From a virus, in the IMG/VR virus record IMGVR_UViG_3300017971_000622: a stretch of 31,161 nucleotides of DNA; one strand, written 5' to 3'. The notes below the pieces were generated by a model that made no database searches, was not told the origin of the DNA, and was given only the letters and a program-made list of their open reading frames with translations. Shown in pieces: positions 1-7,910 of the stretch; within the stretch, counting starts at the first letter, position 1, and each line of letters opens with the position of its first letter. The translations under genes were made by a program, and so were the position numbers.

Positions 1-393
1 ATCCATAATCCCCCTCATACCGCCTGTCGAGTTGAGGATAAGGCACCACGTGAGCAGGTTTTATCTGCTTCACTCCATAAGCTACACGACCCATCCCTCC
101 AATATACTCGACGCTTCTCCTGAGCTTGGCCTCTGCCTCCTTGGTGAAGTTCCGAAGATGATAACTGGCAAATTCGAGAGCTATCTTCTTGGCATTGTGC
201 CACTCAGTGTTTGGATTGCCCACCTTCACCGTAACGGGATAAGGAACGCTACCGGCCAATTTCACGGCATATCCATTACTGGTGTGCTCGACCGAGAGAA
301 TCTGCCACTCCCACGGGTCTAACCTGTCTTCAAACCTGATATTGACTGCCGTCAACTGCTTTGCCAGCCTCACCAGCTCCTGTGCTATCTTTT
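1..393 (-). CDS. Leader-family protein, 3'-partial (runs off the window start)
   Basis: Manual reverse-complement translation from ATG at 393-391 gives MNEQKIAQELVRLAKQLTAVNIRFEDRLDPWEWQILSVEHTSNGYAVKLAGS... with no stop before position 1. It is absent from the ORF track because it is unterminated. It carries the shared N-terminal leader. Confidence 0.6.
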
Positions 394-399
394 GTTCGT

Positions 400-681
400 T
401 CATAAAGCTTCCTTCAGTGCCTCCTGCACGGCCCTCTCCGCCGCAGGGCCTGCCGCATCGCTTCCACGACCCTTTTCATTCATTATGCGCCATATTTCCT
501 TCTTCAGCTCCCCGGCCTTGCGCTCTACTTCGCTAATCTCACGACGGGCAAGCTCAAGACCCCGGCCACCGCCCTTCGCCATTTTCTCGGCGGCATCCAG
601 ATTGTCACGAATCCCCCTGCCCGCTGTCAGCGCTCTGGCCAGTCTTACCAACTCTCTGGCTATGACGTGCTCAGTCTTCAT
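400..681 (-). CDS. Leader-family small protein (MKTEHVIARELVRLARALTAG...)
   Basis: 93-aa ORF with ATG start; N-terminal leader motif. Confidence 0.6.
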   Translation of the reverse strand: MKTEHVIARELVRLARALTAGRGIRDNLDAAEKMAKGGGRGLELARREISEVERKAGELKKEIWRIMNEKGRGSDAAGPAAERAVQEALKEAL

Positions 682-970
682 CGCTTGTCTCCTCCACCAA
701 ATGGATTATCAATCCCTCAGTGGTTTCAAGAACGTCCACGAGTTGCTTCTCGATATGCTTGAACATATTTTTGGCCACGGTGCCCATATTCTCAATTTCT
801 GTGCGCTTGACATCCTTGAAAGACCGGAACAAATCGCCCAGCTCTCGTTGCATCTTACGAAGAGCATTTAGTGCCTTTATCACATCTCGGTCATCAAGAA
901 TCCGGTCTGCCGCTGTTAGTTCTCTGGCCATGGCTACCAGCTCTTGGGCTATCTTTTCGTTATTCATCAT
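671..970 (-). CDS. Leader-family small protein (MMNNEKIAQELVAMARELTAAD...)
   Basis: 99-aa ORF. Tandem ATG ATG at 970/967. N-terminal leader motif. Overlaps neighbours by a few nt. Confidence 0.65.
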   Translation of the reverse strand: MMNNEKIAQELVAMARELTAADRILDDRDVIKALNALRKMQRELGDLFRSFKDVKRTEIENMGTVAKNMFKHIEKQLVDVLETTEGLIIHLVEETSDED

Positions 971-1236
971 CCGACCTTCCTTGCGGTTTCTTTTATCGCA
1001 ACACCGCCCCGAGATTCTATTCCCAAATCAGTGGCCAACTCAATGGCATCCCTCTTGCTCTTGGCCCGAACCCTCATGCTCATGGTAAGAATCCTCCTGA
1101 CCTCCCACTCCGGCAGGTCTTCCTCCAGATTCTCCCTGTGCATCCGCTCAAGAAGATTGTTGGCTATCTTCTGTATATCCATGCCAACCCAAAGCCCTCC
1201 GGGGCGGCAAGCCGCCCCATCGGACTCAATTTTCAT
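967..1236 (-). CDS. Divergent leader-family small protein (internal MDIQKIANNLLERM...)
   Basis: 89-aa ORF. Only a degenerate leader (QKIA..L) starting at the internal Met at 1182, which may be the true start. Stop/start abut the upstream gene. Confidence 0.35.
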   Translation of the reverse strand: MKIESDGAACRPGGLWVGMDIQKIANNLLERMHRENLEEDLPEWEVRRILTMSMRVRAKSKRDAIELATDLGIESRGGVAIKETARKVG

Positions 1237-1238
1237 CC

Positions 1239-1652
1239 TTACGGAATTGTTACATTCGAACCGCCCACGCCACCGAACAGTGCGCCCGTGCCATAGCGAC
1301 GGTTGCCGGTTGCGCCAACCAAGACGCTCGTGTGTACCACTTCCGAATCGGTAATCGGAATGTCATCGAGGTCACGACCCACGACGCCCAGCATCTCGAC
1401 AAGGACGTGCGTCGGCTCGGCGTCAATGTCGCCAAGGTAGTTCGATGCCGCCGCCGTAACCGAGAGGCGGTTGAACTTGGCCGCAAGCCACGGACGGGTA
1501 CCCGTCTGCGTCTGCGGGTTCCAGATGTACTTCAAGTACGTCTTGACCGCCGCCAATTCGGCTCCTGTCGGCTCCGTGATACGACTGTTCCGGGCGATGT
1601 TCCATACCCATCTCGCCCACTGCCACCAACTATATGTACTACTTCCGGCCAT
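1239..1652 (-). CDS. Hypothetical protein (no leader), MAGSSTYSWWQWARWVW...
   Basis: ORF 1239..1739. Preferred start is ATG at 1652, preceded by AAGGAGG 6 nt upstream. Trp/Gly-rich, with no leader motif. Confidence 0.5.
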   Translation of the reverse strand: MAGSSTYSWWQWARWVWNIARNSRITEPTGAELAAVKTYLKYIWNPQTQTGTRPWLAAKFNRLSVTAAASNYLGDIDAEPTHVLVEMLGVVGRDLDDIPITDSEVVHTSVLVGATGNRRYGTGALFGGVGGSNVTIP

Positions 1653-1756
1653 TTTAGGCCTCCTTTCGTTTTTTGCCCTTAGAGGTCTCGCAAACGATAA
1701 CCTCAACATGGTCGCCACCATGGCTCCATGCCGACCCATTTGGGCATAGGGTCAAT

Positions 1757-6226: not shown

Positions 6227-6236
6227 CGAATGCTCC

Positions 6237-6596
6237 TTAAATGGCTATGCCGTACTGCTTCGCCCATTCTTTCAATGACTCCATGCCGTAGAGGACAGTG
6301 TCGTAGTTCTTCCTCTTGGCCGCATCCCAGAACACGGGGATGATGCTGGCGTCCAAGTCTTCTATCATCTCGGCAAAATCATCCTCATCACGCACGATTT
6401 TACTCCGGGCCTTTCTGAAGTCCTCCAGTCTCATATCACGAGACTGTTCCATCAAAAACTCAGCAATCGCTTCGGCAGTCTCAACCGTGTCGTACCTGTC
6501 ACTCTTTAAGAATCTTTCGATTTCCGGCCAACGATAGACGGCCCTTCCTGCAACAAACTCTCTTACGAGCTTCTCTGCTATTTTCTGATGATTCAT
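6237..6596 (-). CDS. Leader-variant small protein (MNHQKIAEKLVREFVAGRAVYRW...)
   Basis: 119-aa ORF with ATG start. Variant leader; paralogous to 6593-6877 (REFVA..R...F). Confidence 0.55.
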   Translation of the reverse strand: MNHQKIAEKLVREFVAGRAVYRWPEIERFLKSDRYDTVETAEAIAEFLMEQSRDMRLEDFRKARSKIVRDEDDFAEMIEDLDASIIPVFWDAAKRKNYDTVLYGMESLKEWAKQYGIAI

Positions 6597-6877
6597 CGAA
6601 TGCCCCTCACGCTTCTGAGATGGTCGGAGATGGCATTATCCAAATCTGAAAATGCCTCTGCCATAGCATCACGTTGTTTTTTCATCTTCGGACTGTCAAG
6701 CTCCGGGTTCTCCCCTCGGGTCTCGTACATGATGCCCAGTGTATTAAGATAGTAGCGCCCGAACGTGGCGAACTCCCTCCTCATCTCCTGCAACGCATCC
6801 AAGTAAGGAAACCGGGCAACTCTACTCCGGGCTACGAACTCTCTGGTCAGCCTCTCGGCTATGCGTTCTTCGTCCAT
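6593..6877 (-). CDS. Leader-variant small protein (MDEERIAERLTREFVARSRVARFPY...)
   Basis: ORF 6593..6898. Preferred ATG at 6877 with GAGGAG 7 nt upstream. Confidence 0.5.
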   Translation of the reverse strand: MDEERIAERLTREFVARSRVARFPYLDALQEMRREFATFGRYYLNTLGIMYETRGENPELDSPKMKKQRDAMAEAFSDLDNAISDHLRSVRGIR

Positions 6878-6887
6878 GTCAGTCTCC

Positions 6888-7283
6888 TCAGAAAGCACTC
6901 AATACTGATTCCACCTTCCTTACGGTGTCATCAACAATCTTGGATATTTTGGCTATCTTGGCGTCCACCTTCCTTGCGTACTGCGGGTCATCGAAATGAT
7001 ATTTGTCCTCGGAAATCCAGATGTCTTCCTGCACGTCTGTCGCCAACTGCTCCAGCTTCTGAGCCGCCTTGTTGCGCTCACCCCACGGGTCTCCCTTCGC
7101 ACTTCGCACTCTCGATGACTTTTTCTTCTTCAGGAAGTCGGGCTTAGGCTCGTTCTCCTTGCCGTCATTGTCCTTGTCCTTGTCTTTCCACTGTTTCTTG
7201 AAAGCTTCGGGGACTTCGCCTTTCTTCGAGACCAGCTCTCTGGCCAGTCTTACCAGCTCTTGTGCCACTTCTTGTTCGTTCAT
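6888..7283 (-). CDS. Leader-family protein, Lys-rich (MNEQEVAQELVRLARELVSKKGE...)
   Basis: 131-aa ORF; ATG at 7283; leader motif. Confidence 0.6.
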   Translation of the reverse strand: MNEQEVAQELVRLARELVSKKGEVPEAFKKQWKDKDKDNDGKENEPKPDFLKKKKSSRVRSAKGDPWGERNKAAQKLEQLATDVQEDIWISEDKYHFDDPQYARKVDAKIAKISKIVDDTVRKVESVLSAF

Positions 7284-7293
7284 GTCAGTCTCC

Positions 7294-7668
7294 TTAAAGC
7301 CCGTAGCTTCTCGCCAATCTTTCGGCTTCTCTCGGGTCTGCGTCTATGATTGGAATAATCCTACTGATTTCCTTCAAAAAGCGAGTTCGACTCAGGTGGT
7401 CGAGTGTACGAAAGTCCAGTCTGAGATATGCCTCGGCATGTCGTGGGTCAATGTCCGTTCGGCCAAGCTTCCTGAGAGTGGAAGTTACGATATCATCATA
7501 CATGGAACGAAGAGCCGTCAGCTCTCTGGCCATTCTCACCAGTTCTCGGGCTACTCTTTCACTGGAATCAACTTTCTTGGTGCGCCGGGTCTTGACAGGC
7601 TTGCTCTCAACCGGCTCGATGATTTCAACATCCCCCACCTCGGCAAGAAAAACTCTGTGATTGCGCAT
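7294..7668 (-). CDS. Protein with the leader displaced ~36 aa from the N-terminus (…SSERVARELVRMARELTALRS…)
   Basis: 124-aa ORF; ATG at 7668 overlaps the stop of the upstream gene. No alternative start lies immediately before the motif. Confidence 0.5.
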   Translation of the reverse strand: MRNHRVFLAEVGDVEIIEPVESKPVKTRRTKKVDSSERVARELVRMARELTALRSMYDDIVTSTLRKLGRTDIDPRHAEAYLRLDFRTLDHLSRTRFLKEISRIIPIIDADPREAERLARSYGL

Positions 7669-7910
7669 TACGCCTCCGCAACTATTTTTGTAAGAATGTC
7701 AACAAGCCCTTCGACCGTCGTGCTTGGCCGGATAACGCCAACGCCGAACTGCTTCAGGCGCTTGCGCTTCTTCTGCGTGAGCTTGCTCATCTGGGTTTTG
7801 AGACTTCTCACCTTGGAGGCGAACTGCTCATCAATCTTCTCTTCTTCCTCGGCGGCCATAATCTCGTTGGCCAGCACCAGAAGCTGTCTTGCAACCTTGG
7901 CTCTGTTCAT
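7668..7910 (-). CDS. Leader-variant small protein (MNRAKVARQLLVLANEIMAAEEEE...)
   Basis: 80-aa ORF; ATG at 7910; degenerate leader. First gene of the array in the direction of transcription. Confidence 0.5.
   Translation of the reverse strand: MNRAKVARQLLVLANEIMAAEEEEKIDEQFASKVRSLKTQMSKLTQKKRKRLKQFGVGVIRPSTTVEGLVDILTKIVAEA

Follow-up and report, generated by a model that had tools for sequence, protein, structure and literature searches.

A 20-residue N-terminal leader on an array of mutually dissimilar small phage proteins: a candidate address tag

The internal proteins of bacteriophage T4 illustrate how a short peptide can address diverse phage proteins: the injected inhibitors of host defence have nothing in common but the tag by which they are placed in the scaffolding core (PMC3012670; PMC5694885). 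These capsid-targeting sequences (CTSs) are 10-20 residues long, and gp53 and gp54 of phage SPN3US likewise have MANFVKSKLARESVE in common (PMC5694885). Here, we describe a 20-residue leader shared by at least 28 genes of one operon in a large uncultivated phage, part of which is represented by the IMG/VR virus record IMGVR_UViG_3300017971_000622; the whole stretch of 31,161 nt that was analysed is referred to below as the window. The analysis shows that the tag is real and modular, that selection acts on it at the peptide level, that its copy number differs between relatives and that two conserved leaderless genes, g04 and o87, are linked to it. We propose, at about an even chance, that it is a portable protein–protein docking helix, an address tag that would deliver a variable arsenal of accessory proteins to one phage-encoded partner. 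No description of this family was found in the literature, in which searches for shared N-terminal tags of large phages returned only T4 and SPN3US.

The array occupies positions 1-7910 on the minus strand, where 21 short open reading frames (ORFs) are tightly packed, most of them with Shine–Dalgarno sequences. A six-frame scan of the 31 kb with a hidden Markov model (HMM) of the leader gave 17 matches (29.7-46.9 bits), all on the minus strand within 1-7910, and a regular-expression scan of the whole 31 kb found no copy outside this region; as a control for chance, 64 unrelated phage loci (~1.3 Mb) gave zero HMM matches of 10 bits or more. The leader lies at residue 1 in 14 proteins, one of which (g00) is truncated at the edge of the window. 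Besides the 17 strong copies, there are two shortened variants (g16 and g17) and one decayed remnant (g03). An earlier note on this DNA had counted twenty consecutive ORFs that begin with the leader; the core of that description stands, but the count is slightly too high, as the leader is internal in g14 and g19, short in g16 and g17, a remnant in g03 and missing from g04. The array runs past the left edge of the window, and its extension was read from a second contig (L009), which is identical to the window across a 1931-nt overlap and adds a further 3.4 kb with nine more leader genes; the analysis thus covered 31 kb plus ~10 kb of this phage, and the array comprises 23 strong and 5 weaker copies across ~11.3 kb. 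On the other side, downstream of a gene for a Ro60-like TROVE protein, the order is a strong intrinsic terminator (8322-8348, minus strand; 11-bp stem with 9 GC pairs, and a T-run), an AT-rich stretch, the leaderless o87 and then the array. Since this terminator follows the TROVE gene and there are no strong terminators within the array, the array and o87 together look like one operon.

The logo derived from 305 unique copies reads M, N/D, N/R/K, Q/E, K/R and V/I at positions 1-6; A (99%), R/K/Q, E (90%), L (99%), V/L, x and V/L/I at positions 7-13; and A (98%), R/K, E (69%) or D (11%), L (90%), T/V/M, A/G/S and x at positions 14-20. It corresponds to two xAxELxA heptads, with hydrophobic residues at a and d and Ala at e, and in this it follows the heptad pattern of coiled coils and Ala-coils (hydrophobic a and d, small e): I/V6, L10, V/L/I13 and L17 form a hydrophobic stripe, which is adjoined by a small-residue seam of A7 and A14. 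The mean hydrophobicity is ~0 and the hydrophobic moment is 0.60, and, therefore, the leader helix is predicted to be amphipathic. Charged residues recur every 3-4 positions, and a Sec/Tat signal peptide is ruled out, there being no uncharged hydrophobic core of ~10 or more residues. The near-invariance of A7, L10 and A14, above all of the two Ala residues, argues for tight helix–helix packing. The nearest PDB sequences to the leader profile are designed CC-Hex barrels (IAQELKAIAKEL vs IAQELVAVAKEL), although this is a likeness of pattern only (E ~0.2; range 0.1-0.7); sequence searches of the PDB with the leader profile, the leader protein P0085, o87 and g04 found no homologues.

Judged from the codons, conservation acts on the peptide, and not on a DNA repeat or an RNA element. 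Pairwise identity between leaders is 0.70, 0.80 and 0.52 at codon positions 1, 2 and 3, respectively, as against 0.26-0.34 just downstream and 0.32 in the upstream DNA; where a residue is shared, the same codon is used in 51% of cases vs 37% expected from codon usage. It is this pattern of codon positions and synonymous codons, together with the unconserved upstream DNA, that rules out three other sources of the conservation, namely a repeat in the DNA, gene conversion and an RNA element. A shared promoter motif that would time the operon was also considered and set aside: matches to CATRTAAAGGAGG are mostly Shine–Dalgarno sequences and are uninformative.

Behind the leader, the sequences are mutually dissimilar, as the earlier note had stated: there is no pairwise BLASTP similarity between the array bodies (best E 0.03), their isoelectric points (pI) range from 4.4 to 10.1, and Trp-rich types are among them. 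The bodies are 60-181 residues long and contain only two Cys in total. The 181 unique bodies found in the window and the other loci fall into 141 families. Pfam searches with the 21 array proteins, 92 family members and 10 L009 proteins gave nothing significant, except for DUF2958 on one L009 leader protein, and PHROG searches with the leader-array proteins gave no matches. An array of precursors for ribosomally synthesized and post-translationally modified peptides (RiPPs) is ruled out, as the bodies are of folded size with almost no Cys and there are no RiPP modifying-enzyme families nearby.

Sequence comparisons indicate that the tag is modular: it can be gained, lost, internalised by fusion and shortened by one heptad. 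Gain or loss is seen in the o114 family, whose member in the window (23562-23906) is leaderless, whereas the leader is present in two relatives (loci L045 and L052) and has a collapsed form (MNRQR-TAG) in a third (L015). In g12, alignment with P0162 and P0163 reveals the layout leader, domain A, second leader with exactly one heptad deleted (KVARELTSG) and domain B; its relatives either stop after domain A or place domain A behind other domains. An AlphaFold2 (AF2) model of g12, made from a three-sequence alignment, has a mean predicted local distance difference test (pLDDT) score of 64.7 (~80 for domain A), with the leader predicted as a helix spanning residues 3-18 (pLDDT ~70), and a Foldseek search of the PDB with this model gave no match with E <0.5. 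The second leader of g19 is truly internal, because the codon that precedes it is GTT, which is not a start codon; the orthologues in L015 and L050 retain the first leader. Outside the window, 15 of 24 internal leaders retain their Met, which suggests fusions of adjacent genes, and natural proteins with 2-4 leaders occur (P0034, P0035 and P0087). Tandem duplication is indicated by the array itself, in which leaders are less alike the farther apart their genes lie (Spearman -0.39, Mantel p = 0.005). The general idea of the earlier note, one targeting peptide on diverse payloads, fits with the peptide-level selection, with the 141 unrelated body families and with the presence or absence of the tag on homologous bodies; its closest precedent is the CTS of the T4 internal proteins (PMC3012670).

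A profile search of proteomes, which the earlier note had suggested, returned 353 clusters at E <=1e-3 among 1.84 billion representative proteins. The leader scores at least 15 bits in 154 of the proteins retrieved and begins at residue 1 in 135 of these. Pattern scans located 46 loci in metagenomes as well as several viral contigs, with lengths of up to 144 kb; of 56 loci examined for this, most carry several copies on the same strand. The family is confined to uncultivated phage-like contigs: it was found in none of 185,579 species representatives of bacterial and archaeal genomes, nor by tblastn in GenBank phages (for which a 20-residue query has low power), and region 1-8000 of the window has no DNA match in GenBank. 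In one other lineage (L151, from Logan SRR23086384; proteins P0034, P0049, P0083 and P0085), a second conserved motif, [IM][DE]FP[ST]x[DE]AxDKY[LM]KxHPxAD[KR]SxHxV, comes immediately after the leader, and this motif is absent from the window; the unit of leader plus motif is repeated up to four times within proteins of 270-480 aa.

Three leaderless genes accompany the tag. The TROVE protein, which also has a von Willebrand factor A (vWA) domain (8366-10174, minus strand; Pfam TROVE 1.2e-19), carries the DxSxS motif of a metal ion-dependent adhesion site (MIDAS), whose residues D404, S406 and S408 are invariant. The conserved first gene of the operon, o87 (7988-8230, minus strand), encodes 80 aa with the consensus MPTYRxNxTNxQQ..EEAxFExxVPVF...GVVxPxxD and without a match to known proteins; it lies upstream of arrays in seven contig groups and in 10 of 11 related viral TROVE loci, and within this clade it is always directly after TROVE and ahead of the leader genes. 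The third, g04 (1239-1652, minus strand; 137 aa), is embedded in the array and is defined by an invariant N-terminal helix rich in Trp, Arg and Asn (SWWQYARWVWNIARNxRITEPTG) and a Gly-rich C-terminus (ATGNRRYGTGxxFGGVGGSxVTIP). Homologues of g04 were found in eight metagenome contig groups at 67-84% identity and in seven viral contigs (L123-L129) at 44-77%, and leader genes stand beside g04 in every one of these loci (7/7 viral and all eight metagenome groups), as against none of the 64 control loci. The bodies of the tagged proteins upstream of g04 differ between loci, which rules out a fixed tagged partner at that position.

The cassette as a whole was followed through 21 viral TROVE loci. 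The order TROVE, o87, leader gene(s) and g04 is kept in 10 of the 11 viral contigs that encode a TROVE with 55% identity or more to that of the window, and none of the other three elements accompanies TROVE at 49% identity or less. The number of leader genes per related cassette is 1, 1, 1, 2, 4, 7-8, 12, or 15 and more, up to the 28 or more of the phage described here. In the minimal cassettes, the single leader protein resembles g20 by eye (L129, 9683-9937), and an orthologue of g20 appears to be their only leader gene; orthologues of g20 are confirmed (45% and 53%) in just two loci, L132 with 4 leader genes and L138 with 15. In seven contig groups, the array or g04 is followed by the gene for a conserved, highly charged protein of 327-410 aa whose C-terminal part is a coiled coil (L009 5478-6461, plus strand; relatives L011 12107-13336 and L129 10838-11845), with an FmdB-type zinc-ribbon protein and a DUF5659 protein downstream; the composition of the charged protein is scaffold-like, yet it has no PHROG match.

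On the docking-helix proposal, the tag would have arisen on one small protein, of the g20 family, within a cassette of Ro60-like TROVE, o87, g20 and g04. In some lineages, tandem duplication would have amplified the tagged gene, after which the bodies would have diverged, fused or been replaced, with the tag held by purifying selection. Each tagged protein would be tethered via its tag to the same phage-encoded partner, and small accessory proteins for host take-over or anti-defence would thereby be brought to one place; the likeliest such place would be the assembling virion, from which they would be co-injected with the DNA, like the T4 internal proteins that carry a CTS. These parts of the proposal are not equally secure. 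That the tag binds a common partner is probable; genomic association favours g04 as this partner and, in second place, o87, but the identification of the partner with either of them is tentative. The virion is a possible, though doubtful, destination, put forward by analogy with T4. It is unlikely that the tag would then be cleaved off.

Several observations weigh against this proposal. The internal leader of g19 is intact, and, therefore, a free N-terminus is dispensable. Pfam and PHROG scans of the window and its ~10-kb extension identified no capsid, portal, scaffold or prohead-protease gene, the neighbouring genes being mostly of nucleic-acid, RNA-repair or NAD metabolism; among the ORFs of the relatives' 20-kb g04 loci, there is one Phage_tube_2 match, which is not assigned to an ORF or locus. 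The candidate partner g04 has no Pfam, PHROG or PDB match, and its single-sequence AF2 model (pLDDT 38.8) is unusable. Moreover, some leader clusters (L151, L033 and L045) have no g04, o87 or TROVE in the surrounding 7-10 kb, and so the link between g04 and the leader is one-directional; it may partly derive from shared ancestry, and the synteny of the cassette could simply reflect common descent inside one phage clade.

Four alternatives to this proposal were weighed, together with the possibility that the N-termini have no common function. The first dispenses with a receptor: the leaders themselves would bundle into coiled coils or α-helical barrels, from tetramers to heptamers, as homo- or mixed oligomers, and so form a self-assembling hub. 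The heptad E-L-x-A-[VI]-A-x is indeed that of the designed CC-Hex barrels, the closest matches in the PDB, and the proteins with 2-4 leaders would suit such a hub. However, the PDB matches are not significant (E 0.1-0.7), the relatives' minimal cassettes encode a single leader protein, and the internal Met retained in 15/24 copies suggests that multi-leader proteins are accidental gene fusions. Moreover, a helix of two heptads is short for a bundle that must be stable by itself, and we regard self-assembly as unlikely.

A somewhat less likely alternative is that the leader is a cleavable capsid-targeting propeptide, cut after Glu9 and/or Glu16 by a prohead protease of the T4 or phiKZ type to release mature internal proteins, which was the main reading of the earlier note. 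The proteases of SPN3US, phiKZ and T4 cut after A/S/G-x-E or L/I-x-E (PMC5694885), and the A-x-E tripeptides to which the earlier note had drawn attention do exist, at positions 7-9 in 90% and at positions 14-16 in 69% of the 305 copies. The cleavage that it suggested on their account fares less well. The putative P3 Ala (98-99%) is more conserved than the putative P1 Glu (90% and 69%), and at least one A-x-E is present in 97.0% of copies vs 96.7% expected under independence; since Ala is the more invariant residue and there is no excess of A-x-E, we see no sign of selection for a cleavage site. Furthermore, L17, T18 and A19, past the putative cut, are also conserved, the g/a/d/e heptad pattern fully accounts for the same residues, and there is no prohead protease among the Pfam and PHROG matches of the 31 kb plus ~10 kb.

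To an equally low probability, the tag could be the loading signal of an intracellular assembly other than a capsid, built by the phage and serving dozens of interchangeable clients during infection. Candidates for this assembly are a hub based on g04 or o87, a Ro60-like ribonucleoprotein (RNP) and a vault-like cage of major vault protein (MVP); if correct, this would constitute a viral system for the addressing of cargo, whose list of clients could be expanded, from 1 to 29 or more per genome.

Two specific receptors had been proposed in the earlier note, which placed the MVP-like gene and the TROVE gene correctly: the TROVE/vWA protein and a shell of the MVP-like protein. Docking to either is improbable. 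In the TROVE/vWA protein, a Glu of the leader could complete the MIDAS metal site; also in favour of TROVE, its gene immediately precedes the cassette both in the window and in 10/11 related viral contigs, and its DxSxS motif is invariant. This adjacency is conserved within the clade, but o87 and g04 are equally conserved neighbours and docking is unsupported: a strong terminator separates TROVE from the array, there is an array without TROVE at that position in L015 and one without TROVE in L151, and the TROVE genes at <=49% identity have no leaders. No Y RNA was found near TROVE in Rfam at E <=1 (7900-16400), although the intergenic regions 10175-10405, 10841-11286 and 11364-11716 could hold a Y-like RNA. 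Between the MVP and TROVE genes lie a tRNA-Met (11287-11363) and then a strong terminator (11219-11254).

The MVP-like gene (11717-13408, minus strand) lies 3.8 kb from the array, and its product, with a Vault_3 repeat and shoulder and E 2e-9 to the solved major vault proteins in the PDB, is by these matches a true MVP homologue. It adjoins the upstream o373 (373 aa, no known domain) in a two-gene module (window 11717-14496, minus strand) that recurs in all 62 IMG/VR contigs recovered (many of 100-480 kb) and in the huge-phage genomes LR756500 and LR756501. In none of these 62 viral loci and two genomes is there a leader within 10-20 kb of the module, and MVP is beside TROVE in 0/21 TROVE loci; on this co-distribution, docking to MVP is disfavoured. 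Two preprints report bacterial and viral MVP homologues; the text of the viral one names neither TROVE nor gene neighbours.

That the N-termini have no common function, being relics of serial tandem duplication kept by a constraint on translation initiation or folding or by gene conversion, is very improbable: the greater likeness of neighbouring leaders and the somewhat raised use of the same codon (0.51 vs 0.37) would fit, but conservation peaks at the second codon position, roughly half of the synonymous sites vary, the 20 residues of the leader are retained over 141 body families and on distant contigs with unalignable bodies, internal copies are intact (g19) and the upstream DNA is unconserved (identity 0.32).

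The individual genes of the array, all on the minus strand, are as follows, with HMM scores for their leaders. At the left edge, g00 (2-403; 40.6 bits) is truncated, its full ORF in L009 encoding 166 aa; g01 (400-681; 93 aa; 34.9 bits) has the leader MKTEHVIARELVRLARALTAG with one extra residue, and g02 (671-967; 98 aa; 43.8 bits) has an acidic helical body. The remnant of g03 (967-1182), MDIQKIANNLLERM, was read from the translation and lies under the HMM threshold, only MDIQKIA being kept. Beyond g04 follow g05 (1757-2047; 96 aa; 39.9 bits), g06 (2047-2382; 111 aa; 44.2 bits) and g07 (2410-2928; 172 aa; 44.7 bits), which has a basic body, and whose C-terminal domain reappears behind different N-termini (P0161). 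The body of g08 (3003-3323; 106 aa; 42.3 bits) is Trp-rich and acidic (pI 4.4); next are g09 (3323-3814; 163 aa; 39.2 bits), g10 (3816-4094; 92 aa; 41.3 bits), g11 (4109-4369; 86 aa; 39.4 bits), the fusion g12 (4389-4994; 201 aa; 41.0 bits for the first leader and 8.1 bits for the second) and g13 (4994-5362; 122 aa), which has the highest score, 46.9 bits. In g14 (5362-5937; 34.4 bits), the leader is internal, at about residue 100, with a possible internal start (GGAGGA-N8-ATG). The leader gene g15 (5951-6226; 91 aa; 41.4 bits) precedes the two variants that are three residues shorter, MNHQKIAEKLVREFVAG in g16 (6237-6596; 11.4 bits) and MDEERIAERLTREFVAR in g17 (6593-6877; 8.7 bits). The KKGEVPEAFKKQWKDKDKD body of g18 (6888-7283; 36.5 bits) belongs to the most widespread family, with orthologues in 12 loci. 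Lastly, g19 (7294-7668; 38.2 bits) consists of a decayed N-terminal leader, a linker and the intact internal leader, and g20 (7668-7910; 29.7 bits) is the first leader gene of the operon. Outside the array, too, some ORFs have N-termini or segments that weakly resemble the leader and score close to the HMM threshold or under it (MNREARIADKIAKEIL, MNREEKIAEKVV, MREARELLRLARLLMG and NVIRELVATAMEITG; window 20158-20607 and 21542-21910, minus strand; L009 9985-10701 and 7490-8470), and these may be decayed or diverged tags.

Elsewhere in the window, there is a phage-encoded tmRNA (15201-15578, minus strand; 135.9 bits) with the tag peptide AKVINFPGVMAPAMAA. In the region 23882-28920 (minus strand), the genes for NAMPT (26538-28007) and for a NUDIX protein (27937-28920), which make up an NAD-salvage pair, adjoin two PAPS-reductase-like genes (23882-25012 and 25422-26435); the best matches to NAMPT are from the jumbo or huge phages RsoM2USA and LR756502.

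If the leader is an address label, it provides a list of the proteins, in hundreds of body families, that have a common destination in a clade of large uncultivated phages, and, by analogy with the T4 internal proteins, that list would probably be rich in new anti-defence and host-takeover functions. The label would also be a compact 20-residue handle with which to load foreign proteins into the same destination. Irrespective of this, the range from 1 to at least 28 copies at one locus among relatives is a clear case of phage gene-family expansion, and the cassette ties the tag to a phage Ro60-like protein, g04 and o87, making their function approachable via the tag.

By sequence, the tag appears to belong to no known tag family, and its relationship to described systems is one of arrangement. 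Encapsulin cargo and the vault cargo that carries an INT domain resemble the array in that one short docking element serves several cargo proteins encoded beside the shell gene. However, the cargo-loading peptides of encapsulins are usually C-terminal and extended, whereas the tag here is an N-terminal helix, and encapsulin cargo is ruled out both by this position and by the absence of any encapsulin (HK97-fold) Pfam family from the window and neighbouring loci; in the case of vaults, MVP is not co-distributed with the leader. RiPP arrays such as the prochlorosins, and polymorphic effector families, in which the N-terminal module serves trafficking, likewise combine a conserved N-terminal recognition element with hypervariable C-terminal parts and many paralogues per genome, but no modifying enzyme, transporter or secretion system is found near the array. 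The designed CC-Hex barrels (ELKAIAx) share with the tag E at g, L at a, I/V at d and A at e, yet this is not homology (E ~0.2) and the natural tag has only two heptads.

Among phage systems, the head propeptides of phiKZ and SPN3US also have A-x-E tripeptides, and the SPN3US paralogues gp53 and gp54 have identical N-termini; in contrast to the one 20-residue tag on more than 140 body families, these propeptides, which are cut after S/A/G-x-E, are mostly longer than 100 residues and protein-specific, and no phiKZ-like head or protease genes are seen near the array. To our knowledge, there is no by-eye similarity between the T4 CTS and the leader. The T4 CTS, which is found on IPI/II/III, Alt, gp67 and gp68, is nevertheless like the leader a short N-terminal peptide common to otherwise unrelated small proteins, with genes clustered in variable loci and a tag that is separable from the body (PMC3012670, PMC5694885). 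As in the variable (hyperplastic) loci of the T4 internal proteins, gene content fluctuates, from 1 to at least 15 leader genes in relatives to at least 28 here, and the payloads, thought in T4 to be injected anti-defence proteins, are proposed to be of the same kind. There are also differences: the T4 CTS has ~10 residues and a handful of genes, as against 20 residues and at least 28 genes of a single operon; residues other than Glu are the best conserved in the leader, which stays intact at internal positions; and the CTS is cleaved and packaged, whereas for the tag described here both are hypothetical. What stands out as new is the scale of the array and its link to a Ro60-like cassette; the kind to which it belongs, short address tags on diverse phage accessory proteins, is one already known.

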